Below, one piece after another: positions 5,033-58,648 of a stretch of DNA of 64,000 bases (position 1 is its first letter; each line of letters opens with the position of its first letter). The position numbers were made by a program, and so were the translations under genes. The notes beneath the pieces were generated by a model. The model was not told where the DNA came from, did not search any database, and was given only the letters and a program-made list of their open reading frames with translations. Source of the stretch: Lachnospiraceae bacterium (GTDB taxonomy: Bacteria; Bacillota; Clostridia; Lachnospirales; Lachnospiraceae); contig SVFT01000002.1 of assembly GCA_015056735.1 (NCBI GenBank), forward strand, positions 100,432-164,431, written 5' to 3'.

Positions 5033-5060
5033 TTGGGTTAATTTGAGTTTGTAGTAATAA

Positions 5061-5248
5061 GGGCGCGGAGCTGTTTTGAACTATCCTGATGCTGGCTCTC
5101 CGCACTAAATTCGCACGCACTCCTCAGAACATAGGCTTTCTGCGGAACTCGCTTCGCTCAAACAGGTCCTCGAAAGCCTATTGAGGAGCGCATGCTTATT
5201 AAGTGCTACGGCAAGCATCTGGGATAGTAGCAAAACAGCTCCGCGCCC
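5061..5248. repeat. structured palindromic element, copy A (~188 bp, 18-bp perfect self-TIRs GGGCGCGGAGCTGTTTTG / CAAAACAGCTCCGCGCCC)
   Basis: Arms 5061-5137 and 5174-5248 are self-complementary. The asymmetric apex at 5138-5173 is the reverse complement of the apex in copies B and C. Confidence 0.85.
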
Positions 5249-5354
5249 ATTTTAGATTCTGCTTTTATACTACTGGTACAATGACAGGTCGTGAAATGGA
5301 TAATACAATAATATGAGGAATGGAAGATCACGACGAGAGAGGTTTTGTGTACCA

Positions 5355-5951
5355 ATGTTACGCGAAGACGAGATCAAGAAGCAACGTAAAATCGGAAAGC
5401 AGTTAATGCTGGTTAATTTGTTTAATTGTGAAAAGGACAGTGTCGTGCCCGTTTCAATAGACGACGCAGCAGCGTGGGCTTCTATGGATATAAACGATGT
5501 TAGGAAGTTAAGCAACTTTTGGAGAGGGTTTTCATCCTATGAATTATCGTGGGGCGCAGTTCATGCCTATGAACGTGGAGAAGAATATGCGGGTAGAAAC
5601 GCAAATTTATTTTTGTTTAGAACATGTATGGTTTATGGAAGCCTGTCGTTGGAGATATTGATTTGCAATTTAGAAAAGAAATTTGTGGATTATCTAGCAC
5701 ATGAAAATTATACTGAATATTGCAAAAAACACAGCACTCGGCCGATAAGGGATGAAATGAATCAATCGGGAGTTTTTGAAAAAATACTGCGTTATTACGA
5801 GGACCAGTTTATTGAAGTGCTTGAGGATGCAATTGCTGAAGGGTATGATTGGGATGTAATCTGTGAACTGGCGGGCTTTAGTATCTCAACTAAGAAATAT
5901 GCCCGATATTATGAGTCGTGCTTAGAAAAAAGTAAAGTTTCGGAAGCGTGA
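5355..5951 (+). CDS. hypothetical protein, first gene of the cassette (no recognisable domain)
   Basis: Long ORF in low-GC DNA on the same strand as its neighbours. The start is uncertain: ATG 5313 has no RBS, while ATG 5355 follows GAGAGAGG. The C-terminal segment DVICELAGFSISTKKYARYY looks HTH-like. Confidence 0.5.
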   Translation: MLREDEIKKQRKIGKQLMLVNLFNCEKDSVVPVSIDDAAAWASMDINDVRKLSNFWRGFSSYELSWGAVHAYERGEEYAGRNANLFLFRTCMVYGSLSLEILICNLEKKFVDYLAHENYTEYCKKHSTRPIRDEMNQSGVFEKILRYYEDQFIEVLEDAIAEGYDWDVICELAGFSISTKKYARYYESCLEKSKVSEA

Positions 5952-5975
5952 AGATTTCAACTTTCTTAAAGGAGC

Positions 5976-6296
5976 GTGCGGCCTGTGGAGAGAAGATATC
6001 CTGTTCTTGATGTCGTAAAGACCGGACAAAATATAAAGAAAATTATGCAGGCAAGAGGTCTTACTGTTAGAGATATTCAAACGTTTCTCGGACTTGGGAC
6101 ACCGCAAGCAATCTACCATTGGTTTGAAGGGAGAAATGCACCGACACTTGATAACGTGTATGCGCTCAGCGAACTGTTTCGTCTGCCTATAGATGCAATC
6201 TTATGCGGGAACCGGAAGAATATCTTTTTGTCTAGTCAAACTAGTGGGAGAAGGCTATATGCATATTATGTGGGCATCCTTGGGATGATTGCATAA
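5976..6296 (+). CDS. XRE-family helix-turn-helix transcriptional regulator
   Basis: IKKIMQARGLTVRDIQTFLGLGTPQAIYHWFEGRNAPTLDNVYALSELFRLPIDAIL is a classic HTH_3/Cro-C1 pattern. GTG start after AAGGAG. Confidence 0.8.
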   Translation: MRPVERRYPVLDVVKTGQNIKKIMQARGLTVRDIQTFLGLGTPQAIYHWFEGRNAPTLDNVYALSELFRLPIDAILCGNRKNIFLSSQTSGRRLYAYYVGILGMIA

Positions 6297-6321
6297 GGGG
6301 CAACTGCCTGCCGGAATACTG

Positions 6322-6350
6322 TTTATGATCATGATTTATCGTGATATAAT
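6322..6350 (+). promoter_or_regulatory. predicted extended -10 promoter for the 97-aa ORF / vapD pair
   Basis: TGATATAAT at 6342-6350 (TGnTATAAT) with a weak -35 TTTATG about 17 nt upstream. The palindrome ATGATCAT at 6325-6332 overlaps the -35. Confidence 0.45.
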
Positions 6351-6390
6351 ACAGTCAAACTTGTATTTATTTTTTATGAGGTTTGTTATT

Positions 6391-6684
6391 ATGATGAAGA
6401 TGCTTATTAAGATGGATGAAGCAAAAATACGTGAAGAAAGAAAGTATGATATTTCTAAGATCAATGCTTATCTTGCTAAGGCCTTTGCAAAGCGTCATAT
6501 GGAGCTGGATGATGATGGCTGGTATATCAACGGGAATTTTAGTACTTGTGGTTCCCTTATTATCACGCTTTCTCAGAAAGATTGGTTTATTGACAATCTT
6601 ATGGAGTGGCTTTGGTATGACGAAGAGGATGCCAGTACAGAGGATTTAAAAGCTCGTTATTCCAAGGAGAAGACCATTGCCTAA
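6391..6684 (+). CDS. hypothetical 97-aa protein, translationally coupled upstream partner of VapD
   Basis: ATG 6391 follows TGAGGT. The ORF end overlaps the vapD start by 8 nt. I recognise no family. Confidence 0.55.
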   Translation: MMKMLIKMDEAKIREERKYDISKINAYLAKAFAKRHMELDDDGWYINGNFSTCGSLIITLSQKDWFIDNLMEWLWYDEEDASTEDLKARYSKEKTIA

Positions 6685-7018
6685 TGAAGTTAGAAGGCGA
6701 TATGCCATTAATTTTGATCTTACGATTAAACAGCTTGAGGAGCATTACTCGAGTGATCATCCGAAGCGCGCATATGGTCAGATTGCAAGTTATATGAAAA
6801 AGCATGGCTTTTCTCATAGGCAGTGGTCTGGTTATATTTCAGATATAACGCTGACAAAATCGGAACTTGTTGATTTCACATCGGATTTACACATGACTTT
6901 TCCTTGGTTGATAAAATGTGAAGGAAGCATGGATGCAACCGTAATCAGTGGTATTTTTGATATTAAACAAATGATTCTTGATACGATGTCTGATGAAGAC
7001 GATGATATTGAGCTTTGA
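6677..7018 (+). CDS. vapD: VapD-family (Cas2-fold) endoribonuclease-like protein
   Basis: N-terminus RRYAINFDLTIKQLEEHY...KRAYGQIASYMKKHGFSHRQWSGYI follows the VapD pattern (YA..FDL ... Y..I...L...GF...QGSVY). TTG start at 6677 with AAGGAGA 5 nt upstream. Confidence 0.7.
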   Translation: MPNEVRRRYAINFDLTIKQLEEHYSSDHPKRAYGQIASYMKKHGFSHRQWSGYISDITLTKSELVDFTSDLHMTFPWLIKCEGSMDATVISGIFDIKQMILDTMSDEDDDIEL

Positions 7019-7060
7019 ATATGGTTCTATTTCGATTATGTAGATAAATTGCAGCGAAAA

Positions 7061-7091
7061 GCGGCAGGTCAATTTGACCTGTCGCTTTTTG
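7061..7091 (+). terminator. rho-independent terminator after vapD
   Basis: GCGGCAGGTC-AATTT-GACCTGTCGC hairpin followed by TTTTTG. Confidence 0.75.
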
Positions 7092-7126
7092 TTTGTTTCA
7101 ACTTGGTTTAACGAGGAGGTACTGTT

Positions 7127-7753
7127 ATGTGTGAATTTGGTTATGCTCGGATATCATCAAAAGATCAAAATCCGTCTAGACAACTTGATGCTCTTTTGGA
7201 CAGAGGAGTTGAGGAGAGAAATATTTATGTTGATTATGAATCAGGAAAAGATTTTAACCGACCGCAGTATAAGAATTTAATGAATCGATTGAGATATGGC
7301 GATTCTATCGTAATCAAGAGTATTGATCGACTCGGGCGCAACTACGGTGAGATTCTTGACCAATGGAGAATTATAACGCAGATGAAGGGCGTTTTCATCG
7401 AGGTTTTGGACATGCCGCTTTTGAACACATCTGTCCAAAGAGATAATCTTACAGGCCGGTTGATTTCCGACCTGGTTTTGCAAATCTTGGCATATGTCGC
7501 GGAAACAGAAAGATCTTTTATTAAGCAGAGACAGCGTGAGGGAATCATTTCCGCGAAGAAGCGCGGAATTTGTTTTGGAAGGCCGAAAGTGAAAGAATCC
7601 GACCTATTTGAAGTAGCATACTTTAAATGGCTTAAGGGACAATTGTCTTCGCGCGAAGCTGCTGCGTTTGCTGATATGAAGCATTCCACATTCTACCGGC
7701 GTTGCAAAGAGCGGAAAATGTACGAAAACTCCGTGTTAGAAAGTAGACAATGA
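7127..7753 (+). CDS. small serine recombinase (resolvase/invertase family)
   Basis: GYARISSKDQNPSRQLDAL catalytic-serine motif, VIKSIDRLGRN, ERSFIKQRQREGI, C-terminal HTH; 208 aa. RBS GAGGAGG. Confidence 0.9.
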   Translation: MCEFGYARISSKDQNPSRQLDALLDRGVEERNIYVDYESGKDFNRPQYKNLMNRLRYGDSIVIKSIDRLGRNYGEILDQWRIITQMKGVFIEVLDMPLLNTSVQRDNLTGRLISDLVLQILAYVAETERSFIKQRQREGIISAKKRGICFGRPKVKESDLFEVAYFKWLKGQLSSREAAAFADMKHSTFYRRCKERKMYENSVLESRQ

Positions 7754-7858
7754 GAAACAGTCGATTTGTCGCAACATTGTATGCTTTTTCTTCTTTTTTC
7801 TCATTATAAATCTTCCGTTTCAGAAAGTCTGTTTTTTGAAACAAGGAGGAAAGTTATT

Positions 7859-8761
7859 ATGAAGTGTCCAAATTGTGGGGCGGAAATAGGACCTACTAGC
7901 CAGTTTTGTGCATCATGTGGATCTCAAATATCATATGAAATGAAAAGAGAGCAAGAACAATTAAACAAACAAGGTTGTCCTCATTGCGGAAGTTCAAACA
8001 TCTCTTTTAATCGTGAAAAGCAAGCAGAGTTCCGCGCTAAAAATGGAACGAATGTAATTCGGCGTACTGTTGGATTGTGTAAAGACTGCGGTTATACTTG
8101 GAGCACGAACATGGATGTTCCCGAGAAAAAATCTAAACTCTGGTTGTGGGTATTGGGGTGGATATGCATTTTTCCTGTTCCCTTGACCATTTTATTATTG
8201 CGAAATAAAGATATGAAACCAGCTTTGAAATATGCAATTATAGCAGTTGCATGGATTGTATTCCTTATTATTGGTCTGAGTGGAAAGTCAAAAGATACAA
8301 AACAGCAGGCTGCAAATGAAAAGTCACAAACAGAGGTTGAAACAGTTTCAGAAGAAAAAGAAACAGCCAATGCTGATGCTGAAGAAGTGATGGATGTTGT
8401 GCTGAAAGTCGAACCTAATATAAATGTTGATGACGGAACCGTTCTCTTTGGTATAACGACAAATTTGCCAGAGAATACGGAATTGATGATAACGGTATCC
8501 AATGCTGATGGATATAAAGCACAAGATAAAGTTGTCATCCTTGCAAAGGGCTCTGGGTTCACGTCAGAGTTTTCGGATCATGGTAAGGCACTTAAAGGCG
8601 ATTATGATGTAAGCGTTTCGATGAGCTTACCAGCGTTACAAAAGGATTCTGTGAGAAAAGTTATTGGTGAAGAAGGTGAAAGAATAGGTGGGCAGTATGT
8701 AAAGAAAAGTGAGATCGGTCATTCCAATTATGTATCTGGTGAATTTCATTTTTCATTCTAG
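7859..8761 (+). CDS. double zinc-ribbon, two-TM membrane protein with C-terminal extracytoplasmic domain (function unknown)
   Basis: CPNCGAEI..FCASCG and CPHCGSS...CKDCGYTW zinc-ribbon pairs, then two hydrophobic helices (LWLWVLGWICIFPVPLTILLL, YAIIAVAWIVFLIIGL). ATG 7859 follows AAGGAGG. Confidence 0.65.
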   Translation: MKCPNCGAEIGPTSQFCASCGSQISYEMKREQEQLNKQGCPHCGSSNISFNREKQAEFRAKNGTNVIRRTVGLCKDCGYTWSTNMDVPEKKSKLWLWVLGWICIFPVPLTILLLRNKDMKPALKYAIIAVAWIVFLIIGLSGKSKDTKQQAANEKSQTEVETVSEEKETANADAEEVMDVVLKVEPNINVDDGTVLFGITTNLPENTELMITVSNADGYKAQDKVVILAKGSGFTSEFSDHGKALKGDYDVSVSMSLPALQKDSVRKVIGEEGERIGGQYVKKSEIGHSNYVSGEFHFSF

Positions 8762-8778
8762 AGAATGGTGCGAGTATC

Positions 8779-8968
8779 CGGCGCAGGAGGCTGTTTTGCT
8801 ACTATCCCAGATGCTTGCAGGAGCACTTAATGAATGAGTACTCCTCTACAGGCTTTCGAGGACCTGTTTGAGCGAAGCGAGTTCCGCAGAAAGCCTGTGT
8901 TTAGAGGAGTGCTTATGAATTTAGTGCGGAGAGCCAGCATCAGGATAGTTCAAAACAGCTCCGCGCCC
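8779..8968. repeat. structured palindromic element, copy B (inverted relative to copy A)
   Basis: By eye, close to 90% identical to the reverse complement of 5061-5248. Apex at 8856-8891. Confidence 0.85.
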
Positions 8969-8974
8969 TAATAT

Positions 8975-10657
8975 TTACTTGATCACGATCCGCCCCTGCG
9001 GCTCTTTGTAGCGCTCATCCACCCTGCCGCCGAGCTCTTCTGCGATGTAATCGATTACGGCATTCTCAAGCGGGATGCCCAGATTGTTGCCGCCTTTTTC
9101 GTAAGGGGCTTTGAGAACGGTGTAGGTATCGCCGCCGGTTGCGAGAAAGTCGTTGGTGACAAGGATGTATGTCTTATTCAGATCAAGTGGCACGCCGCCG
9201 ACCTTGACATCCGTAATACGTTTGCCGGGTGCTGCCGGTGCAAAGTAAGTGGAGTTTTCGTATGCGGCACCCTTTTCATAAGGGATGCCGGTGTTGATCG
9301 TAAAGCTGATACCTGCTACCTGCGGGAATGCACCGATCGGTTCGGGGTATACGCTACATGCAACTTCGAGCATTTCAAGCACCTGCGCACCGGTAACGGG
9401 GACCGTACAGAGCGTATTACTGAATGGGAACACGCTGATCAGGTCTTTTCTGGTGACTTCGCCGGGAACAACACTTGCGCGGATGTTCCCGCCGTTACAA
9501 ATCGAGATGTCCGCATGGATGCCCGCTTTTCGGAGCGCATAGAGCTGCGCATCGTTTGTGAGGTCACCGAAGTTTGTTTCCGCCGTGCGGCTGCCGTTTG
9601 CAACGGTTTCGATGACGTTTCCTTTCTTATCAAGGATATCGCCGCCTGCTTTCGTGCCGTTTAGGATAACGGATGACTGCGCGATGACCTGTCTGCTTTT
9701 TTCATCAAGGTAAGCGTTATAGGCATCGCCGAGCGCTGTCAGTTCGGGATCGTATGCACCTTTATAATCGGATGCCGAGATCAGAGAGGCGGTCATCTTA
9801 TTTCCGTCGTATACAACCTTTCCGACATTTGCAAGATTGCAGCCGGTGCTGGTAAGGAGCGTATCACCGACCATGATTCCTCCGGGCATCTCGGTATGGC
9901 TGTGTGCGTCAACGAACAGATTGATGCCGGTCGTATGTGCGAGCAGGTCGGTTGAACGGTTCGGGGCATCCGCCTGATCTATGCCCAGGTGGCCGACACA
10001 GATGATCAGATCACAGCCGTGTGCCTTCAGCGTATCGACCTGCGCCTGCGCACAGTCGTAGAGTTCCTGTTCTGCCAGGATCTTGTAAGGCTCCACATAT
10101 TTCGGCATGGATGTTGTGATCGTTGTCGGCGTGGTCAGACCGAAGATGCCGACTTTGTATCCTTTCGGCGTTTGGGTGATGATGTTCGCCGGGAATACGG
10201 GCTTGCCGGAATCTTTGTAGAATACGTTGGCGGAGAGGACGGGAAAACGGATTGCGCCGAGCAGCTTTTCCATATGCGCCGGTGCGTAATCAAATTCGTG
10301 ATTGCCTACCGTCATCATGGTATAGCCGACTCTGTTGACAAAATCGATGGCGGAGTTCCCTTGCGTGACCGTTGTCATGATCGTTCCCTGGATGATGTCT
10401 CCGGCATTGAGGAGCAGTACGTCTGCGCCTGTATCTTCATAGTATTCTTTGATCGCTTTGACACCGGCACTTCCAAGCGATATACCGCTTTCGGCAATGT
10501 CATGTCCGTGCGAATCATTGGTATGCAGAATGACAAGTTTGCCGGAAAGATTTTCTGCCGGCGCCTTTTGGGCAAAAACCGCAAGCGGCATGGCCAAAGT
10601 GAGCACAACGGTCAATGCCGGGAGCATCGCCAGTGCTTTTATCAATCGTTTCTTCAT
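8975..10657 (-). CDS. secreted bifunctional metallophosphatase / 5'-nucleotidase (UshA/CpdB-like)
   Basis: Signal peptide, then ILHTNDSHGH, GDIIQG and GNHEFD metallophosphoesterase motifs plus a C-terminal 5'-nucleotidase domain. Confidence 0.85.
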   Translation of the reverse strand: MKKRLIKALAMLPALTVVLTLAMPLAVFAQKAPAENLSGKLVILHTNDSHGHDIAESGISLGSAGVKAIKEYYEDTGADVLLLNAGDIIQGTIMTTVTQGNSAIDFVNRVGYTMMTVGNHEFDYAPAHMEKLLGAIRFPVLSANVFYKDSGKPVFPANIITQTPKGYKVGIFGLTTPTTITTSMPKYVEPYKILAEQELYDCAQAQVDTLKAHGCDLIICVGHLGIDQADAPNRSTDLLAHTTGINLFVDAHSHTEMPGGIMVGDTLLTSTGCNLANVGKVVYDGNKMTASLISASDYKGAYDPELTALGDAYNAYLDEKSRQVIAQSSVILNGTKAGGDILDKKGNVIETVANGSRTAETNFGDLTNDAQLYALRKAGIHADISICNGGNIRASVVPGEVTRKDLISVFPFSNTLCTVPVTGAQVLEMLEVACSVYPEPIGAFPQVAGISFTINTGIPYEKGAAYENSTYFAPAAPGKRITDVKVGGVPLDLNKTYILVTNDFLATGGDTYTVLKAPYEKGGNNLGIPLENAVIDYIAEELGGRVDERYKEPQGRIVIK

Positions 10658-11796: not shown

Positions 11797-12867
11797 ATGG
11801 ATCGACTCCGAAAGTGGTGCTACGGCAACCAGCCCGCCACATTTTTTCAAGAGCATAAGACGCTGATCAACGCCTATAACGTGCATATCAATGATATCAT
11901 GCTCAGGCTGATTCCTGTCCTTTCGGCATTATATCTTGTCAACAGCTATCTCCTGATGGGAAAGGGGAATCCCTACATCAGACAGACCTGCTGGTTTTTT
12001 ATCGTTTGCTTTTCCCTGTTATCCCATATCAGAAAGAAGAATCCGTGGCCGTTTCTTCGCCACTCACTGCTTGACAGCCTGATCTGCGGAGAGATCTCAT
12101 TTCTATTCCTTCTGATGGTCGGTCCGATCTCCGATCCGGGGAATATGTCGGTCTATCATCCGGTTTTCTTCTTCATGCTGTTCCTGCTGTATATCATACC
12201 GCTTCATCATCTGGCACTGTACTGCCTTTTGCATTTTATCCTGTACAGTGTGCTGGATATTTATTGTAAAGGCTACACGATCGCTGTCGCGGATCTCACC
12301 AATGTCATGATCTGCGCGATCGGCGGTTTCATGCTTGGCGGTAATGTTTTAAAGAGCCGTCTTTCCGAGATCGCGTCGTATGATCTCTTAAAGCGTCAGA
12401 GCGAGGAAAAACTTGCAAAAGCGAATGCGCTTGCAAGCAAGGATTCGATGACGCATGTCGGCAACAGGCGTGCTTATCAGGAACTGGAAGAAGAACTCAA
12501 CGAGCTGATCGAACAGGGGAGGGCCCCTGCTTTTGCGGTGGTTGTCTGTGATGTGAACGGACTGAAAGCTATGAACGACACGGGCGGTCATAAGAAGGGC
12601 GACCGACTGATCCAGAAATGCTGCGCGGATATCTGCTCTGTCTATGTGCATTCGCCTGTTTTCCGTTACGGAGGCGACGAATTTGTTGTGATCCTCAGAG
12701 ACGGTGATTATGAGAATCGTGAAGTGCATTTCAGACAGCTTCGCAGTTATACGGAATTTTCAAGCGGCATGGCGATCTTTACTGCCTCAGGAGACAAAAC
12801 GGTCGCAGATGTTTTCCAGCGTGCGGACCTTCGCATGTATGCGCATAAGAATGATCGCAGACACTAA
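11797..12867 (+). CDS. membrane-anchored diguanylate cyclase (GGDEF)
   Basis: Multi-TM N-terminus. DSMTHVGNRRAY, VVVCDVNGLKAMND and RYGGDEFVVIL. Confidence 0.85.
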   Translation: MDRLRKWCYGNQPATFFQEHKTLINAYNVHINDIMLRLIPVLSALYLVNSYLLMGKGNPYIRQTCWFFIVCFSLLSHIRKKNPWPFLRHSLLDSLICGEISFLFLLMVGPISDPGNMSVYHPVFFFMLFLLYIIPLHHLALYCLLHFILYSVLDIYCKGYTIAVADLTNVMICAIGGFMLGGNVLKSRLSEIASYDLLKRQSEEKLAKANALASKDSMTHVGNRRAYQELEEELNELIEQGRAPAFAVVVCDVNGLKAMNDTGGHKKGDRLIQKCCADICSVYVHSPVFRYGGDEFVVILRDGDYENREVHFRQLRSYTEFSSGMAIFTASGDKTVADVFQRADLRMYAHKNDRRH

Positions 12868-28213: not shown

Positions 28214-28263
28214 GAAGTGATGTATTCTGACGTCTCCGGGCGGATGCATAAAACGAACCATAA

Positions 28264-30754: not shown

Positions 30755-31897
30755 ATGAATTCTTCGATTTTTGACAAACTCTATGAGAGATGGCAGAGTC
30801 GATTGGTTCTGACCAATATTACGTTTGTGGCAGCGGGCTTTGTATGCCAGCTGCTCGGTTATGGGATCTCTATGCTCACACATACTGCGCTTACATCCCC
30901 GATGGAGTATGTGACGGATTTTCTGCTCCTTCCGTTAGGGTGTAATCTTCTTGTGCTCCTGCTGGGGGCGATCCTTCTTCGCGCACTTAGGGATTCCTTG
31001 TTTTGGAGTGAATTTATCCCTCTCCTGCAGATGAGCCTTATCCTGACCATCTTTGCGATTACCTATAATCAGTTTAGTGTCCTGATCGGATTACTTTGTT
31101 TTACACTTTTTATCGGTGCGGCTTTTGATCGTGTCAGTGGTCTTTTGGTCGCGCTCTTTTTTGCGCTTTACGAGGCATATGAGGTGCAGGTGTTCAGAGA
31201 AGTGTATAGCCGTGAACATGGAATTCCGGATCCGTATGCCAGTATCGAAATGGTCGTGGCGATCGTAACAATCCTGGTTGCCTTTTTTATCAGCCGCGAT
31301 TTTCTGAAATATCAACTTCGTAAGATTGATATCCTGACCAAGGTGTATGAAAAGGAAGTGCGTCTGCAGGCAGCACTTGACAGGGATGTCAAGACCGGTC
31401 TCTATTCTGCGACATATTTTAACAATGCGCTGGATAGAGCGGTACGCGAACAGCCGGAAACGTTGTATTTGATGATTCTTGATCTTGATGATTTTAAGCG
31501 TATTAACGACCGCTTCGGCCATGCGAGCGGTGACGTTGTGCTTTTTCGTCTGGCCGCTCTGATGCGTGACTATTTCAGCGAAGATGAATGCCCGAGCCGT
31601 TTTGGCGGAGAAGAGTTTGCGGCGATCGTCAGAACGGGGACAATGGAAGAGATGCTTCGTCGCTGTGAGGCGTTCCGCAGGGAGTTTTCTGCGCAGGTCT
31701 ATCCGTTCACTTCCGAACCGATCACGTTTAGCGTCGGGATCGCTTCTCTGGAAGCCGGGTGGGAGACAAACAAGTTCTTTGATTATGCAGATGCGGCTCT
31801 CTATCAAGCCAAGAAGCAGGGCAAAAACTGTATCTGCAGGTGGAACGACCTGATGGATCCTTCCGGATCCGGAAGGGAGGCGTCGTATGATAACTGA
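30755..31897 (+). CDS. membrane-anchored diguanylate cyclase (GGEEF)
   Basis: Polytopic N-terminus. MILDLDDFKRINDRFGH and SRFGGEEFAAIV. Confidence 0.85.
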   Translation: MNSSIFDKLYERWQSRLVLTNITFVAAGFVCQLLGYGISMLTHTALTSPMEYVTDFLLLPLGCNLLVLLLGAILLRALRDSLFWSEFIPLLQMSLILTIFAITYNQFSVLIGLLCFTLFIGAAFDRVSGLLVALFFALYEAYEVQVFREVYSREHGIPDPYASIEMVVAIVTILVAFFISRDFLKYQLRKIDILTKVYEKEVRLQAALDRDVKTGLYSATYFNNALDRAVREQPETLYLMILDLDDFKRINDRFGHASGDVVLFRLAALMRDYFSEDECPSRFGGEEFAAIVRTGTMEEMLRRCEAFRREFSAQVYPFTSEPITFSVGIASLEAGWETNKFFDYADAALYQAKKQGKNCICRWNDLMDPSGSGREASYDN

Positions 31898-33017
31898 CAG
31901 GAGAGCAGAGATACTGGATGCCGCATATGAATCCTGGAACGGTCGCCTTAAGCGGATCAATCTCATTCTGATCTTTGCGACGATCGTTGTGGATATCGTG
32001 GGATTTGTCATCAGCAGGGTGGAGCAGACTGGCAAAGTACCCTGGCCATGGTACATTTTGCTTCATATTCTGGTTCCTCTGTTCGTTAATCTGGTCGGCC
32101 TTTTGCTCTGCCACATCAGGGAGAAGAATGAAAACATCTCGAAACAGGAACGCTACGCTTTGCCGCTTTTTGAACTGTGGCTGATCGGCACAACGGTAAC
32201 GATCTCCAAGTATCTGTTCCCGGTATTGACTGTTATGGTCTGCGTTCCGATCTTTTGCAGCGTGTATTTTGACAATCGTGCTCTAACCAGAAAACTGACT
32301 GTAGCGGCCTTTATTTCCGCGGTGATCTCAGGCTTTACGAGTAATCTGTTCAGGGGACTTCGCGGTGAACCTACGGGTCAGCCCATGCAGCATCTGTTTA
32401 TGAACATTGTTCTGGTTCTGGGTGTGTGGATTTTGAGCGCTGCTCTTATGCATCTGCAGTGGCAGAAGAATGAAAGGACGGAAGAGATCCTGAACAAAGA
32501 GAACATGCTTCAGGATGAACTGCGGCATGACAGCAAAACAGGACTTTACTCTTCTGCTTTTTTCAATCATGTCCTTGCGGAGAAGATCAAAGAAGGAAAG
32601 CCGTTCTATCTGATGCTTTCGGATATTGATGACTTTTCTTCCGTAAACAATCACTACGGTCATAATCAGGGCGATCTTGTGCTCGTAAGGCTGGCAGGGA
32701 TATTGTGCGCGCATTTTAATGTAGAAGAGTGTCCGAGCCGGTTTGGCGGGGAGGAATATACGGTTCTGTTTGCCGATGAAGGAGCAGATCGTGCTATTGC
32801 AAGATGTGAAGCTTACAGAAAGGAATTTGAGACGCAGGTGTATTCGTTCATGCCACATAACGTTACGATCAGTGTAGGGCTTGCAAGATGGGAGCGCGGA
32901 CTGACCGATACACAGCTTTTTGATCGCGCGGACAGAGCGATGTATTACTCCAAGCGCAACGGCAAAAACATGACAACAATGTGGAAACCGCAGACGGAAG
33001 AGGCCGTTTCAAAATAG
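31887..33017 (+). CDS. membrane-anchored GGDEF-domain protein, tandem paralogue (GGEEY variant)
   Basis: Same architecture as the upstream gene. LMLSDIDDFSSVNNHYGH and SRFGGEEYTVLF. 11-nt overlap with the upstream paralogue. Confidence 0.8.
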   Translation: MITDRRAEILDAAYESWNGRLKRINLILIFATIVVDIVGFVISRVEQTGKVPWPWYILLHILVPLFVNLVGLLLCHIREKNENISKQERYALPLFELWLIGTTVTISKYLFPVLTVMVCVPIFCSVYFDNRALTRKLTVAAFISAVISGFTSNLFRGLRGEPTGQPMQHLFMNIVLVLGVWILSAALMHLQWQKNERTEEILNKENMLQDELRHDSKTGLYSSAFFNHVLAEKIKEGKPFYLMLSDIDDFSSVNNHYGHNQGDLVLVRLAGILCAHFNVEECPSRFGGEEYTVLFADEGADRAIARCEAYRKEFETQVYSFMPHNVTISVGLARWERGLTDTQLFDRADRAMYYSKRNGKNMTTMWKPQTEEAVSK

Positions 33018-34364: not shown

Positions 34365-34414
34365 ACAGTTTTGAAAGAGACAGCTTCTGAAAGGCTTGTC
34401 TCAAAACAGGGGAC

Positions 34415-34591
34415 CGCTTTCTCCTTACTGTTTCCCATGCATTCGCATGTGCACTTAGCGAATCGGTCTTCTTCAACGATCATTTCGAGGACTGTTTGAG
34501 CGAAGCGAGTTCCGCAGAAATGATCGACGCTTTGAAGAAGGCGGATGAGTTTAGTGCCGAAATGCGCGCATGGAAACAGTATGAGAAAGCG
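34415..34591. repeat. structured palindromic element, copy C (same apex as A/B, different arms)
   Basis: The apex at 34485-34519 matches 8856-8891 except for one missing C. Arms 34415-34484 and 34520-34591 are self-complementary. GCACTTA and TTTAGTGC boxes are shared with A/B. Confidence 0.8.
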
Positions 34592-34688
34592 CTTTATCTA
34601 TCTAGACAAATGCCTCCAAACATAGTAAAATATACAAGAATTTTGGGCTATTTATATAACTCATAAAATAGAAAGGAAGGGAAATGTC

Positions 34689-53646: not shown

Positions 53647-53725
53647 AACACACTTTTTTCACAAAATAAACAAAAACTGTACACGGACCTCCTGTATGAT
53701 AGATAATGAGTACAGGAGGTTTTTT

Positions 53726-55360
53726 ATGCCCGCTAAGATCGATAAAGATGAAGAGATCATCCTTCATCCTGTAAATAGAAAGAAGCGTATTGTGATCGCA
53801 CTGGTGATCCTGATCCTGGTTGCGGGGATCGGGACAGCGGTGTGGTTTTTTTACTTTCGCCGGACAGAGATGCCGGCACCGGAGCTCCCGGCTGCGCTGC
53901 AGGGTCGTACGGATCTTGTGGCGGCGACCGGAACGACGATGGAGGGTGTGACCGATATCTCGGTCGATACAACGTTTCTGGATACCGATCTGATCGTGGA
54001 TGAGGTTTTTGTATCGAACGATTCGGAAGTGCAGAAGGCGGAGAAAGTGCTGACAATCACCGATGCTTCCTATAAGGCGGCAACGAGAGAACTCGAACGC
54101 GCCGAGATGGATGCAAAGCTTGCATACAGACAGGGCTGCATCGATTACGAGATCAAAAAGCTAGAGGCGGAGGAGACCTATAACAAGAGTCTGATCGAAG
54201 CGAACCTTTCCGAGACGACCATGGCAGATGCGATCGCGGTAGCACAGATCGAAGTGCAGAAGGCGGAAAAGGATCTGAAGGATGCGAACAAGCTCCTTGA
54301 GGAGTATCAGTCTGCGATCAATGACAACTATTACTACACGAAATACGAAGTGGATCGGAAGAAGGCCGATTATGAGAAAAACATGACGGAATTCTTCGAT
54401 AAACTGGATGCCTGGGGTTATGAACTGGATGACGGTGATACCTCTGCGGAAGGATATGAGTACGATCCCGATAACTTTACGATCGTCGGTGCGACCAAAA
54501 GGGGCGAGTCGATCGCAAGGAGCGGCAACGGTGAAGAGACGATCCTGGAACTTTTGAAGGACGCGTACCAGAAGAATAAGGACGAATATGACGATGCGCT
54601 TGAGGATGCCGAGGAAGCGACCGAAAAGGCAAAGGCCGGACTTGCGGCGGCGCAGGACGATGTAGAGCTTAAGACACTTGCGCTCGAAGAAGCCGGGATC
54701 AAGCTTGAGAAGGACAAGACGGAAGCCGCAAACAAAAAGGCGGAGACCGAAGAAGCCGGAAAGCGCGCAAAGGCTACGTATGATCAGACGATCAGGAAGC
54801 TGGAAGAGGATCTGAAGATCCTGAATGATGCGCAGGATGAGGCAACGGAGAACAGGACATATTTCTCGGGCCTTTTCGAAGACGGCGCGATCTATACAAA
54901 GAATGCGGGCACGATCATGTATATCGATGCGTCAGCGGGGAAAAAGTTGGCGAACGGATTTCTGATGGCGTATACCAATACGGATACCATCAGTGTGCAT
55001 GCCTCCGTCGATCAGTCGGATATCGCCAAGCTTAATGTCGGTGATGTCGCAACCGTTGTTTTGGAAGACAAGGATCCGCTTACCGGGAAGATCGAGTCGA
55101 TTGATCCTGTTTCAAGATCCGATTCCAAAGCATCCGTATCGTACAATGTTACCGTCACGATCGAGACGGGTGATGCCGACGTTGAATCCAATATGACGGC
55201 GACGGTTTACTTTGGCCTTGATGCGGATGAATACAGCAGCATCATGGAGAGTTCCGGTGGGGATGCTTTTTCGATCCGGGCGTCGGAGAATGAGGGCGGA
55301 AATCACGGCGGCAGACCCGGTGGAGCGCCGTCCGGAAAGCCGGGAGGTGGAAGGCCATGA
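53726..55360 (+). CDS. HlyD-family membrane-fusion (periplasmic adaptor-like) protein 1, long coiled coil
   Basis: N-terminal TM, split lipoyl-like halves (LIVDEVFVSNDSEV.. and AIYTKNAGTIMYI) separated by about 275 aa of heptad-rich sequence, a beta-barrel region, and a Gly/Pro-rich tail. AGGAGG RBS. Confidence 0.8.
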   Translation: MPAKIDKDEEIILHPVNRKKRIVIALVILILVAGIGTAVWFFYFRRTEMPAPELPAALQGRTDLVAATGTTMEGVTDISVDTTFLDTDLIVDEVFVSNDSEVQKAEKVLTITDASYKAATRELERAEMDAKLAYRQGCIDYEIKKLEAEETYNKSLIEANLSETTMADAIAVAQIEVQKAEKDLKDANKLLEEYQSAINDNYYYTKYEVDRKKADYEKNMTEFFDKLDAWGYELDDGDTSAEGYEYDPDNFTIVGATKRGESIARSGNGEETILELLKDAYQKNKDEYDDALEDAEEATEKAKAGLAAAQDDVELKTLALEEAGIKLEKDKTEAANKKAETEEAGKRAKATYDQTIRKLEEDLKILNDAQDEATENRTYFSGLFEDGAIYTKNAGTIMYIDASAGKKLANGFLMAYTNTDTISVHASVDQSDIAKLNVGDVATVVLEDKDPLTGKIESIDPVSRSDSKASVSYNVTVTIETGDADVESNMTATVYFGLDADEYSSIMESSGGDAFSIRASENEGGNHGGRPGGAPSGKPGGGRP

Positions 55361-57066
55361 TGAAGCTGACACGTAAAAAGAAAAGAATATTTCTGATCCT
55401 GGCAGCGCTTGTCATTGCGATCTTTGGAGCGGTCTATACGCTGATGACGCGCGGCGAGAAGGAAGAAGAAAGATATATCTATAAAGAGACTAGGGTCGAA
55501 CACGGCGTTCTGATGCAGGGCATTCAGGAAAGCGGAAGTGTGACGCTCACGTACAAATCGCAGAAATGTGACGTTGAAATCAATGCGGATGGCGATTCAA
55601 ATAAAAGCAGCAGTGACGATGATGACGATGACGATGAAGACAAAACGCTGAAGGTAGAGGAAGTCTTCGTAACGCAGGGGCAGCGTATTCATAAGGGTGA
55701 TCCAATCCTGAAGCTTACATCGCAGAGCGTGCACAGCATCAGACGTAATATCCGTGCGGACAAGGCAGATGCGGAGCTTTCCGTTACGAATCTGGAGAAT
55801 GAGCTTGAAGCGCTCAAAGTATCGGCAAAGGGTCAGTACGATACGGACGTGCAGAACGGTTCTCTTGCGCAGGAACAGCATGACATCGATACACAGCAGG
55901 TCGCGCTTGAGATCGCGGCCCTCAGGGATTCGGTATCTGTCCTTGCCAATGAGATCAAAGAGATCGAAAAGGAGCTGGAAGACGGCTGGGAGGATTACGA
56001 GGACCTGAAGGAAGACTACGAAAAGTACGAGAGACGTTACTATAACTGGGATCCGGACAATCTTTATGAATACATTCCGCTTCGGGAGAACTATATCTCT
56101 TATCGGGACAAGTATACAAAGGAAACGAGGTCCCGTGCCGATAAGCGCAAAGAGATCGAACGAAAGCAGCAGGAGCTTGCAAAGAAGCAGGCGGATATTG
56201 ACAGACTTTCCGGTCAGACGGATCGAAAGCTTCTGAATGCAAAGCAGACCTTTGATACATCGAGTCTTGCGGGAAGTATGGCATCCGATGTTTATACGTA
56301 TTCCATCCGATCCCTCGAAGAAAAGATCAAGCAGGCGAAGAAGTCTCTGGAAGAAAAAGAGGAGATCCTGACAGATTTTGACAGCTTTGTGGGAGATGAC
56401 GGCATTGTCTATGCGGAAGCCGACGGAATGATCATGGAAGTGCTTCTGATGGAAGGCGATACCGTTAAGGAAAACACAGCGATCATGAATTATACATATG
56501 ATGAGAGCTTCGCACTGTCAGTCGATGTTTCGGAAGAAGATATTGCCGGCGTGAAAGTCGGAGACAGCGTTTCTGTCGTCTTTACGGCTTATCCGGATGA
56601 GACGTTTACCGGAAGCGTCAAAGCAATCAAAACAACGGAGCCCTCCTCTGACATGGCAACGGTCAGCTTCCCTGTCACGATCTCGATCGAAGGGGATACA
56701 TCCAAGCTTTACGGTGGCATGAGCGGCAACGTCACATTTATTACAGACAGATCCGAAGAGGTCGACTATGTATCACGTAAGGCGATCGTAAAGGGCGAAG
56801 ATAAGAAGTCATATGTCTATGTTAAGAATGCCGGGGGAGAGATGGAACTCGTACCGGTCGAAACGGGCTTTACGGACGGCGTGAATGTGCAGATCGTATC
56901 CGGCCTGTCTGAGGGCGATACGGTCTATATCGCAAGCAAAGTCAGCGAGAGCGAAGCATCCTTAAAAGACGGTGAGACTTCCGGCGATATGCCCGAAGAG
57001 GATTTTAACGACATGAAGGAATTGGATAATGAAGAGATCACTTTCAGCTACGATATCGCGCCATAA
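55357..57066 (+). CDS. HlyD-family membrane-fusion protein 2, long coiled coil, poly-Asp tract
   Basis: TM, YKETRVEHGVL, LKVEEVFVTQGQRIHKGDPIL, about 225 aa of coiled coil, VYAEADGMIMEV, and C-terminal KSYVYVKN...VETGFTDGVNVQIVSGLSEGDTVYI. ATGA overlap with the upstream gene. Confidence 0.85.
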   Translation: MMKLTRKKKRIFLILAALVIAIFGAVYTLMTRGEKEEERYIYKETRVEHGVLMQGIQESGSVTLTYKSQKCDVEINADGDSNKSSSDDDDDDDEDKTLKVEEVFVTQGQRIHKGDPILKLTSQSVHSIRRNIRADKADAELSVTNLENELEALKVSAKGQYDTDVQNGSLAQEQHDIDTQQVALEIAALRDSVSVLANEIKEIEKELEDGWEDYEDLKEDYEKYERRYYNWDPDNLYEYIPLRENYISYRDKYTKETRSRADKRKEIERKQQELAKKQADIDRLSGQTDRKLLNAKQTFDTSSLAGSMASDVYTYSIRSLEEKIKQAKKSLEEKEEILTDFDSFVGDDGIVYAEADGMIMEVLLMEGDTVKENTAIMNYTYDESFALSVDVSEEDIAGVKVGDSVSVVFTAYPDETFTGSVKAIKTTEPSSDMATVSFPVTISIEGDTSKLYGGMSGNVTFITDRSEEVDYVSRKAIVKGEDKKSYVYVKNAGGEMELVPVETGFTDGVNVQIVSGLSEGDTVYIASKVSESEASLKDGETSGDMPEEDFNDMKELDNEEITFSYDIAP

Positions 57067-58648
57067 AAAAGCTTTTCTCATCACGGGATTCGTTCTGGCC
57101 TTCGCGCTTGTTGTGAGCGGGATCGGATACGGCATCTATAAGAACGGATCCGATGATGAGGGGGTCTATAAGGAGACAACAGTCGAATACGGGCCGCTTA
57201 CAGTCGGCGTGACGGAAAGCGGGACCGTAAGTGTCGGAACGGTCCAGCAGAAATTTGACCTTGATATCAGCAAATATGCTGCTGAGAACGACGGGTTTTC
57301 CGGCTGGCACGGAGGATTTGACGTAGAAGAAGCTTCTTCGAATAAGAGCGGCAGGACACTTGACGTGGAGGAAGTCTATGTGCGCATCGGGCAGCAGGTC
57401 AAGAAGGGCGATCCGATCTTTCGGGTGAGCGCGGACAGCACGGAAACGATCCGGTCGGAACTGGTTTCTGACAAAGAGAGTGCCAAAGTCACGTATGAAA
57501 AGCTCCTTGTGGAGCAAAAGAAGACGCAGCTTGAAGCCAGACAGGAATATGACAAAGATGTCACATATGGAAAAGCCGCGGATGCAGAGTATGAGGAGAC
57601 CGTCTACGAACTGCAGAAAAAGGCGGACGATATCCTGGAGGACTATACGGACGCGGTGGAAGAACTCAGCGAGATGCAGGAAGACTATGACAGGATCAAA
57701 GCCGATTATCCCAAGGCGCAGGCGTATCTGGCCGAGACCGAGGCGGCGCTGCAGCTTGACCAGACGACATACTGGAATCTGAAGAACGCATCGCTTCGAA
57801 AAACAGCCAAGGAGCGCGTGGATTCCGAAAAAGATGCGATCGAAGAATACGAAGACAAGATCGAAGAACAGAATCAGAAGCTGACACAGCTTAAAAGTGA
57901 CTATGATGAGGCGGTCAAGAATCTCGAGCTTGGCAGGGCGGAAGCCGAAAGCGCCAGAAAGAAGCGTGCATTCCGGCTTGGCAGCGCTGCGGAGATCTAC
58001 AGTATAGCGACGGATAAGATCGAGTATAATGCAAAGGTGGCGCAGGAAGATCTGGAGGATGCAGGCGAAAAGCTTGAAAAATTCGACTCCTATATCAAGG
58101 ACAATATTGTCAGTGCAGAACATGACGGTGTTGTCACAACTGTCAGCCTGCAGAAAGGCGATACCGTACAGAAAGACACGGCGGTCGTTACACTGAACAA
58201 TTATGATGATATCATTGTAAAAGTCAGTGTGGATGATGAAACGGTCAGGGATCTGAAGGTTGGCATTCCTGTCAAACTGTACTTTAATGCTGCGCCGGAC
58301 GGAGATTTTACGGGAACTGTCTCCAAGATCGGTGATTCAACGATCAAGGATAACAGCGTTACCTATGCGATCGAGATCGCCGTATCGGGGGATGTGGCGC
58401 GTCTCTACGGTGGGATGACGTCCGAAGTGACATTTGTTACAAGAGAGACAGAGGCTGTGACTTACGTATCTAACAGAGCGATCATACGTGAGGGCACAAA
58501 GAGCTACGTGAAGGTAAAAGATGCATCCGGCAGGATCACGAAGCAGGAAGTTGTAACGGGTTTTTCCGACGGAAATAATGTTGAGATCAAAGAAGGACTT
58601 ACAAAAGGAGATACGGTCCTGATCGAAAGTAAGGTAAAGAACGTATGA
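57029..58648 (+). CDS. HlyD-family membrane-fusion protein 3, long coiled coil
   Basis: Same motif order as protein 2: YKETTVEYGPL, LDVEEVYVRIGQQVKKGDPIF, SAEHDGVVTTVSLQKGD, KSYVKVKD...VVTGFSDGNNVEIKEGLTKGDTVLI. Confidence 0.85.
   Translation: MKRSLSATISRHKKAFLITGFVLAFALVVSGIGYGIYKNGSDDEGVYKETTVEYGPLTVGVTESGTVSVGTVQQKFDLDISKYAAENDGFSGWHGGFDVEEASSNKSGRTLDVEEVYVRIGQQVKKGDPIFRVSADSTETIRSELVSDKESAKVTYEKLLVEQKKTQLEARQEYDKDVTYGKAADAEYEETVYELQKKADDILEDYTDAVEELSEMQEDYDRIKADYPKAQAYLAETEAALQLDQTTYWNLKNASLRKTAKERVDSEKDAIEEYEDKIEEQNQKLTQLKSDYDEAVKNLELGRAEAESARKKRAFRLGSAAEIYSIATDKIEYNAKVAQEDLEDAGEKLEKFDSYIKDNIVSAEHDGVVTTVSLQKGDTVQKDTAVVTLNNYDDIIVKVSVDDETVRDLKVGIPVKLYFNAAPDGDFTGTVSKIGDSTIKDNSVTYAIEIAVSGDVARLYGGMTSEVTFVTRETEAVTYVSNRAIIREGTKSYVKVKDASGRITKQEVVTGFSDGNNVEIKEGLTKGDTVLIESKVKNV

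Follow-up and report, generated by a model that had tools for sequence, protein, structure and literature searches.

A long-hairpin element with a near-invariant tip, repeated in a Lachnospiraceae chromosome and found across bacterial phyla: a candidate single-stranded-DNA element

Three copies of a long-hairpin element, abbreviated LH, were identified in a stretch of 64,000 nucleotides from a Lachnospiraceae bacterium (GenBank assembly GCA_015056735.1, contig SVFT01000002.1, positions 100,432 to 164,431 of the forward strand). This whole 64-kb stretch is referred to as the window, and its copies as A, B and C. Each element is an imperfect palindrome of ~190 nt, one strand of which forms a long, rod-like hairpin with a near-invariant motif at its tip. 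Selection on the folded single strand is strongly supported by covariation between the arms and by differences between the two strands. On the strength of sequence comparison we tentatively favour the reading that LH is a non-autonomous hairpin element of single-stranded DNA whose tip is recognised, possibly by an HUH-type enzyme. The three copies and their tip motifs, each an exact match to the motif pattern, are located as follows:

5061–5248, folded strand minus: LH copy A (−105.7 kcal/mol, z = −10.8)
8781–8969, folded strand plus: LH copy B, inverted relative to A (z = −7.7; 88% identity to A)
34411–34595, plus: LH copy C, found via repeat family D2 (z = −5.9; strongly diverged stem, same architecture)
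5144–5163, minus: tip motif of A (GTTTGAGCGAAGCGAGTTCC on the minus strand)
8866–8885, plus: tip motif of B
34494–34513, plus: tip motif of C

On direct reading, A and B are each imperfect palindromes when taken singly, and a repeat finder reported 5057–5239 and 8790–8972 as an inverted repeat of 183 nt that is 90% complementary. The repeat finder first picked up copy C through its 74% identity to the centre of B. Its arms have almost no sequence in common with those of A and B and its termini are unrelated to theirs, but the centre is identical and the fold is the same. All three folds are far more stable than those of dinucleotide shuffles (z values above). When the window was scanned with a covariance model made from relatives, only A, B and C were recovered, at 92–118 bits, with the next match at 13 bits; C was the top-scoring match of model R1 (118 bits). 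The fold of B is lengthened to 8766–8985 by an imperfect outer stem, and C has an outer stem of 10 bp (34392–34401 with 34604–34615).

A and B differ at 22 of 188 aligned positions, and eight of these changes fall in four base pairs in which both partners have changed and pairing is kept. An earlier note on this DNA had claimed at least two such double changes and named two, both of which were recovered on recomputation: pair 5126:5182 is A:T in A and T:A in B (8903:8847), and pair 5132:5180 is T:A in A and C:G in B (8897:8849). The third and fourth pairs are 5113:5195 (G:C to A:T) and 5114:5194 (C:G to T:A). Seven changes are one-sided within pairs, two giving G·T and five disrupting the pair in B, the latter mostly in its decayed outer 5′ end; the remaining seven lie at positions that are unpaired in A. 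When 22 random substitutions were simulated on the fold of A, two or more compensated pairs were obtained with P = 0.057 and four or more with P = 0.0005. Hence the two pairs of the earlier note are, by themselves, borderline with respect to chance, and the full set of four is not. The same note had described a 36-nt apex shared by both copies and perfect 18-bp ends in each. The centre is indeed identical, but over 47 nt (5133–5179), a block that includes the tip motif; the perfect ends are true of A, whereas the outer 5′ end of B (8781–8792) has five uncompensated changes.

Covariation between the arms is strong in an alignment of 14 Lachnospiraceae-type copies. RNAalifold predicted 32 pairs for this alignment, 20 of which show compensatory double changes. 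Paired cells amount to 92.4%, compared with 74.2 ± 1.3% after shuffling, and the observed value was reached in none of 500 shuffles. Sliding the partners by one to three columns lowers pairing to 33–50%, and the covariation score is 0.50 versus 0.17. The stem sequence drifts freely, provided that pairing, a few mismatches and a bulge in the 3′ arm are kept. Two of these irregularities are conserved across genera: the bulge, of 4–5 nt, and a T·T mismatch ~30 bp below the tip, within the motif C-T-T-A / T-T-A-G. The latter is found in A as TAAG at 5200–5203 and CTAA at 5105–5108 (plus strand), in B as CTTA at 8826–8829 and TTAG at 8921–8924, and in C as CTTA at 34454–34457 and TTAG at 34551–34554.

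Outside the window, the 20-mer of the tip (GGAACTCGCTTCGCTCAAAC) was found at at least 118 loci from nine or more phyla in one-genome-per-species contigs. Note that the elements sampled in this way contain the exact 20-mer by construction, and that genes at these loci are crude open reading frame (ORF) calls. The strand with GTTTGAGCGAAGCGAGTTCC is the better folder in 95 of 105 elements. Arm mismatches on this strand are G·T in 391 cases and A·C in 230; the asymmetry is retained when one representative per sequence cluster is used (258 versus 155; 44 versus 14 elements, p = 1e-4). Because folding is strand-biased and G·T exceeds A·C, it is the single-stranded form of one defined strand that matters. 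The earlier suggestion that the fold, rather than only the primary sequence, is under selection thus holds in view of the third copy, the covariation and the G·T asymmetry, with the amendment that the primary sequence of the tip is extremely constrained as well.

The tip motif reads TGT(T/C)TGAGCG-N-AGCGAGTT. A block of 30 identical nt (GAGGACTGTTTGAGCGAAGCGAGTTCCGCA) is present in 52 of the 105 distinct elements, from loci of at least six phyla, and the 12-mers flanking this block have a mutual identity of only 35%. In imperfect copies at sampled loci and in viral contigs, variation of the tip is confined to GT[T/C]TGAG and to the N of GCG-N-AGC, where all four bases occur. DNA mini-hairpins of this kind, which are unusually stable, accept G-N-A loops only, with stability decreasing in the order A > G > C > T, and their RNA counterpart is far less stable (PMC13037366); the variation at N matches this G-N-A rule. 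The 5′-TGAG and 5′-CGAG flanks could add tandem sheared G·A pairs, which would account for the 14-nt sequence TGAGCGAAGCGAG behaving as a unit. C-GAA-G triloops recur elsewhere in units of other phyla, as CCCGAAGGG and GTGCCGAAGGCAC, and together with the pattern of tip variation they appear to point to DNA over RNA. Pairing of the tip with rRNA, or mimicry of it, was considered and rejected: the longest complementary or identical runs with E. coli 16S, 23S and 5S rRNA are at chance level.

The phyla with the exact 20-mer include Bacillota, Bacteroidota, Pseudomonadota, Nitrospirota, Desulfobacterota, Myxococcota, Patescibacteria and Cyanobacteriota (Gastranaerophilales). At finer rank the matches come from Lachnospiraceae; Bacteroidaceae, Flavobacteriaceae and Sphingobacterium; Beta- and Gammaproteobacteria; Nitrospirales; Desulfobacterales and Desulfuromonadaceae; Myxococcota; Saccharibacteria, Parcubacteria and other Patescibacteria; and Gastranaerophilales. 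Cultured isolates are represented by Pseudobutyrivibrio sp. YE44, Bacteroides cellulosilyticus DSM 14838, Iodobacter spp., Zooshikella ganghwensis, Sphingobacterium spp. and Christiangramia antarctica. The 20-mer nearly always tops a long stem, the sequence of which is lineage-specific. As a full element, GGAACTCGCTTCGCTCAAAC was absent from E. coli, plasmid and phage collections; in the plasmid and E. coli collections, LH was seen in Ralstonia megaplasmids only, with the tip variant TGTCTGAGCGAAGCGAGTTT (128 records). Single metagenome-assembled genomes (MAGs) of Bacteroidaceae carry many near-identical copies on separate contigs, frequently at contig ends, and some MAGs have more than 10. 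LH is therefore, at least in certain lineages, both multi-copy and recently amplified.

No Rfam 15 family matched the window or eight loci from five phyla at gathering score, and none was relevant at E values up to 10; the top sub-threshold match (E = 0.42) is an unrelated long hairpin. In the openly searchable literature no paper describing the family was found, and matches at the level of concept were to REP/RAYT work only. LH is thus a large and apparently undescribed family of dispersed non-coding repeats. Dispersed intergenic palindromes are well known, and the new part is apparently a tip that is invariant across phyla on 80-bp arms that covary freely.

Outside Bacillota LH units are longer. 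A T-rich tract and then a second hairpin come after the long one on the same strand; this second hairpin is pyrimidine-rich in its 5′ arm and purine-rich in its 3′ arm (consensus TTTTGG-nn-ACTTTT...AAAAGT), and further small hairpins sometimes follow. Examples are loci L005, L013, L031, L052, L053 and L097, and L119 at 2575–2625; no second hairpin adjoins the window copies. The T-tract duplicates the 5′ arm of the second hairpin, and alternative pairing is possible. Betaproteobacterial units have short terminal repeats that covary. The glgX–glgB spacer of Ralstonia holds two head-to-head LH units with accessory hairpins (GMI1000 megaplasmid, L119 2250–2700), and other strains (L121–L123) show nested deletions between repeated arms, or carry the last small hairpin unit in one extra copy. 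This arrangement is a strain-variable, BIME-like palindromic mosaic. The shorter Ralstonia alleles were also considered as empty insertion sites, which was rejected, as they are deletions between repeated arms of the mosaic.

Viral contigs were scanned with a degenerate form of the motif (GTYTGAGCGNAGCGAGTT), which gave at least 120 loci in several groups. About 41 of these (class V2, about a third of the matches listed) were discarded as a chance match inside a replication-protein gene, without a hairpin, in an oversampled phage group. Others are LH-type hairpins in P2-like and other tailed prophages. Those of P2-like prophages (class V1, including L167, L169, L170, L174 and L178) are conserved, have the tip GCGTAGC (GGAAAATTTTTCTT...AAAAATTTTCC) and lie amid capsid and terminase genes; the element thus resides in tailed-phage genomes too.

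Eleven further matches are Vibrio filamentous phages with Zot-like, pIII-like and Rep_trans (RstA-type) proteins, related to VGJφ, VEJφ, fs1, VSK and KSF-1. In these the motif lies on the gene-sense (packaged, +) strand, 410–470 nt upstream of rep and separated from it by an rstR-like gene of opposite orientation, which is the position of Ig-1. The LH tip and the origin motif of one lineage of these inoviruses (class V3a) agree at 20 of 20 nt (TGTTTGAGCGAAGCGAGTTC), on the displaced (+) strand as in the CTXφ/RstA type. In CTXφ itself, GTAGCGCGCCAGTGTTTGAGCGCTAGCGAGTC lies 5 nt from the stop codon of rstR; VAI1 and FR1 share its blocks, with CT or TT at the centre, so that in all three the blocks surround GCG-NN-AGC. 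The sole variable site in these phages is the N or NN of GCG-N(N)-AGC. Ig-1 is a 167-bp ori(+) at which the HUH protein RstA nicks a G/T junction in a hairpin loop, and two Ig-1 sites with RstA suffice for the release of single-stranded circles (PMC4439123, PMC8265649). What makes the phage match interesting is the common pattern of conservation and variation together with this functional parallel. A second conserved hairpin of CTXφ-type Ig-1, CCCCCG-TCTAGTATTA-CGGGGG, lies ~45 nt upstream of the shared motif, and its loop resembles the TAGTATTAC nonanucleotide of circovirus-type origins. It was located at:

L289 841–864: Ig-1 CCCCCG hairpin (CTXφ)
L288 193–216: Ig-1 CCCCCG hairpin
L217 7238–7261: Ig-1 CCCCCG hairpin

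A candidate match in another filamentous phage, the single-stranded-DNA plectrovirus Spiroplasma phage 1-C74, was set aside: its intergenic 17-nt identity to the Ralstonia tip variant (GAGCGAAGCGAGTTTGC; L290 901–917, phage positions 5426–5442) is within chance for a database of this size.

In the mechanism that we propose, the working form of LH would be single-stranded DNA. The tip would fold as a GCG-N-AGC mini-hairpin between tandem G·A pairs and would be read by a trans-acting single-stranded-DNA enzyme, most likely an HUH-type nickase or initiator as at rolling-circle origins; a universal host factor is the alternative reader. The enzyme would copy or move the element, which would then be non-autonomous in the manner of REP/REPIN with RAYT. 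A hairpin inserted behind a gene would probably double as a transcript-end structure, with terminator-like behaviour being a side effect of where copies survive; this role is possible: the position fits, but the orientation relative to flanking genes is unbiased. A free stem under ~20 nt that are identical across at least nine phyla, including tiny-genome Patescibacteria, argues for a very widely conserved reader of the folded single strand. The identity of this reader (HUH nickase, priming machinery or RNA-binding protein) would define a new and very broad host–element interaction, would explain a common source of contig breaks in metagenome assemblies and would possibly tie chromosomal repeats to the replication origins of filamentous phages. 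For annotation, the tip motif is a simple and specific marker, and the family is suited to covariance models.

Parts of this proposal have parallels in known systems. REP, BIME and REPIN sequences are, like LH, dispersed intergenic palindromes at gene 3′ ends that break assemblies, and the mosaic and inverted-pair arrangements of REP/BIME are seen for LH in Ralstonia and in one gammaproteobacterial MAG. REPs with RAYT (TnpA-REP) are thought to be single-stranded-DNA hairpins for an HUH enzyme acting in trans, as proposed here. However, REPs are 20–40 nt long (REPINs about 100 nt) and lineage-specific, whereas LH measures ~190 nt and keeps its tip across phyla. The GT[AG]G tetranucleotide that marks the 5′ foot of a REP/REPIN hairpin (PMC6006769) is absent from A, B and C, the feet of which are GGGCGCGGAGC, GGCGCAGGAGGC and GGGGACCGC or their complements, and from the other lineages inspected. 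A REPtron-type tnpA-REP (Y1 HUH) gene was neither found in the window (Pfam, 59 ORFs) nor enriched within 4 kb of the at least 118 loci.

Rolling-circle ori(+) hairpins (CTXφ Ig-1/RstA, CRESS viruses, geminiviruses) share with LH a conserved loop motif, variable and covarying stems and strand specificity, and the CTXφ-type Ig-1 also shares the TGTTTGAGCG-N(N)-AGCGAGT motif on the packaged strand. Unlike LH, which is chromosomal and multi-copy, with 80-bp stems and no rep nearby, phage origins are single-copy, have short stems and adjoin a rep gene; the Rep_trans initiator gene that lies 410–470 nt from the motif in phages was not found in the window or at 123 LH loci. Single-strand initiation signals and minus origins (G4 oric, RSF1010 ssiA, ssoA) resemble LH in that their single-stranded DNA folds into mini-hairpins, of the GCG-N(N)-AGC or CCGAAGG type, that are read by primases of the host or plasmid, and the same C-GAA-G triloops recur in LH units from other phyla; these sites, in contrast to LH, are single and lie on phage or plasmid replicons. 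Integron attC sites likewise conserve structure over sequence, use one folded strand as the substrate and conserve the positions of unpaired bases. In attC, however, boxes are conserved at the base and the tip is variable, the opposite of LH, and attC sites form same-orientation arrays beside intI, neither of which applies to LH. The base sequences of LH do not fit the attC boxes R′′/L′′ and L′/R′ (RYYYAAC ... GTTRRRY), the window has no integrase, and orientation is mixed.

A wider proposal, which we consider rather unlikely, is that LH elements are chromosomal, multi-copy carriers of a loop of the rolling-circle-origin type, with the same motif as CTXφ-like Ig-1 ori(+), and constitute pan-bacterial single-stranded-DNA elements. 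They would then be nicked, copied or mobilised by HUH enzymes, or read by a universal single-stranded-DNA host factor such as the priming machinery. If true, this would explain ~20 nt that are identical from Lachnospiraceae to Nitrospirales and Saccharibacteria.

Several observations weigh against LH as a single-stranded-DNA element with a phage-type tip. Tolerance of G·T is compatible with RNA too, and in several lineages a terminator-like T-run follows the hairpin on the folded strand. With respect to replication, orientation is 42 versus 66 by a GC-skew proxy, which is not significant among strongly skewed loci; a leading/lagging strand bias judged by local GC skew was rejected as weak and confounded. 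No neighbouring protein family is enriched within 4 kb of the at least 118 loci, at which only generic families such as histidine kinases and ABC transporters turned up, besides spurious ORFs that overlap the repeat itself. In the window no transposase, integrase or RAYT was detected other than the resolvase at 7127–7753 (Pfam, all 59 ORFs). No defined ends of the element were found, and no target-site duplications, including at A, B and C. Searches with three RstA-type proteins (phmmer) gave no RstA-like ORF in the window or at 123 LH loci. In the phages the motif lies locally in a short hairpin of 4–6 bp and caps no long stem. The nicked Ig-1 hairpin may be either the motif's own (loop GCCAGTGTTTGA) or the neighbouring CCCCCG-TCTAGTATTA-CGGGGG. 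Finally, the phage match alone is statistically weak, as the 20-mer is expected ~0.1–0.5 times in the viral collection, and tens of chance matches are expected for the degenerate viral pattern.

The main rival, and a serious one, is that LH is a structured RNA: an intrinsic terminator, a 3′-end stabiliser or RNase III substrate, or a small RNA whose tip binds a conserved protein or RNA. We regard it as somewhat unlikely. Covariation and an excess of G·U are classic RNA signatures, and the genomic position is as an RNA reading would have it. LH copies are intergenic and are found for the most part at the 3′ ends of genes; in the window, each of the three starts 20–30 nt past a stop codon: A starts 29 nt after that of brnQ (5032) and B 20 nt after that of the Zn-ribbon membrane protein gene (8761), and C lies between a MatE gene (stop 34364) and a promoter-like site at 34603–34631 upstream of fba. 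The convergent 5′-nucleotidase gene (8975–10657, minus) has its 3′ end 6 nt past B, within the outer stem. Promoter-like sites occur downstream of A and of C. No canonical terminator was called at A, B, C or their upstream genes, with a scanner that is unable to score stems or loops of this size. The tails of the copies (TTATTACTAC, TAATATTTACTT and CTTTATCTATCT) are only slightly enriched in T; over the family as a whole, T counts are 4.0 past the hairpin and 2.9 on the other side (p = 0.076), and the folded strand in Bacteroidota and some Proteobacteria has a T-run directly after a stem with a GC-rich base.

What the RNA reading does not account for is the unbiased orientation and the DNA-type tip. 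The elements lie between convergent genes in 25 cases, in tandem sense in 16, in tandem antisense in 19 and between divergent genes in five (5/65). LH thus avoids promoter regions and is indifferent to the direction of transcription. Scarcity between divergent genes would suit an RNA, but with co-directional flanking genes sense and antisense placements are near equal (16 versus 19), and copy A is antisense to all genes around it. Rfam gave no family match even at E = 10, complementarity of the tip to E. coli rRNAs is not beyond chance, and the C-GAA-G triloops and the variation at GCG-N-AGC are features of DNA mini-hairpins that are far less stable as RNA. An 80-bp near-perfect RNA duplex would be a target of RNase III, not a stable regulator. 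Between structured RNA and single-stranded DNA, we lean to DNA.

An ordinary miniature inverted-repeat transposable element (MITE), that is, a deletion derivative of an insertion sequence whose terminal repeats are bound by a DDE transposase and whose hairpin is a by-product, is improbable. The perfect 18-bp termini of A, the short covarying terminal repeats of betaproteobacterial units and the multi-copy, intergenic and assembly-breaking habit of the elements speak for it. Against it, the centre of LH is conserved and the ends are not (those of C being unrelated to those of A and B), compensatory change keeps pairing along the entire 80-bp arm, and recognition of double-stranded DNA leaves the strand-specific G·T excess unexplained. 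No transposase is associated with the elements, and A, B and C show neither common terminal inverted repeats nor visible direct target duplications. ERIC, Correia/NEMIS, RUP, BOX and bcr1 are, like LH, intergenic imperfect palindromes of 100–200 nt that can be transcribed and affect termination or stability. Unlike LH, these families are restricted to a genus or family and defined by terminal repeats (often with a TA duplication), and they lack an invariant central loop.

Compensation might also be mechanical, by gene conversion between arms or by mismatch repair in a transient hairpin, as in large genomic palindromes. Such a process would yield exactly the paired double substitutions seen between A and B, and recombinational reshuffling does occur within the palindromic mosaics of Ralstonia strains. 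We nonetheless find this explanation quite improbable: homogenisation should remove mismatches and bulges, yet the T·T mismatch and the 4–5-nt bulge of the 3′ arm are conserved across genera; symmetric conversion is not expected to favour G·T over A·C; and an asymmetric tip that is invariant across phyla is left unexplained.

The last alternative concerns the DNA between A and B, which looks like an accessory islet between brnQ and the 5′-nucleotidase gene and holds three ORFs without a Pfam match in addition to the following:

5249–8780: cassette between the inverted copies A and B (3.5 kb)
5976–6296: gene for an Xre-type helix-turn-helix protein
7127–7753: gene for a small serine recombinase (resolvase)
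7766–8761: gene for a Zn-ribbon membrane protein

That A and B are the recombination sites of this serine recombinase, with the 3.5-kb cassette invertible or mobile, is suggested by inverted repeats around a cassette coding for a resolvase/invertase-type protein, but is highly improbable: context and orientation of the cassette are the same in 14 of 14 public contigs that carry it, with A and B invariant there; no recombinase lies close to C or to over 100 further elements; sites of the Hin type measure 26 bp rather than 190 bp; and no LH motif lies within 6 kb of recombinase homologues (50–67% identity) at 27 metagenome loci, so that the recombinase is a neighbour rather than a partner and the earlier idea of a recombinase substrate is, for this enzyme, not supported.

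No association of LH with tRNA genes was found. The window otherwise represents an ordinary Clostridia-type chromosome, with arginine biosynthesis, a ClpB-like ATPase, fba, TRAP and ABC transporters, chemotaxis and GGDEF genes. An AT-rich short palindrome at 28255–28316 matches the LH model weakly on both strands (13 bits, E about 1.5). It lies ~260 nt past the ClpB-like gene, immediately before the ABC-transporter operon, and probably represents an ordinary terminator. Paralogous runs are present as well: two GGDEF genes are adjacent (30755–33017), with a third elsewhere (11797–12867), and at 53696–58648 three consecutive genes for HlyD-like membrane-fusion proteins lie upstream of a MacB/FtsX-type ABC exporter.

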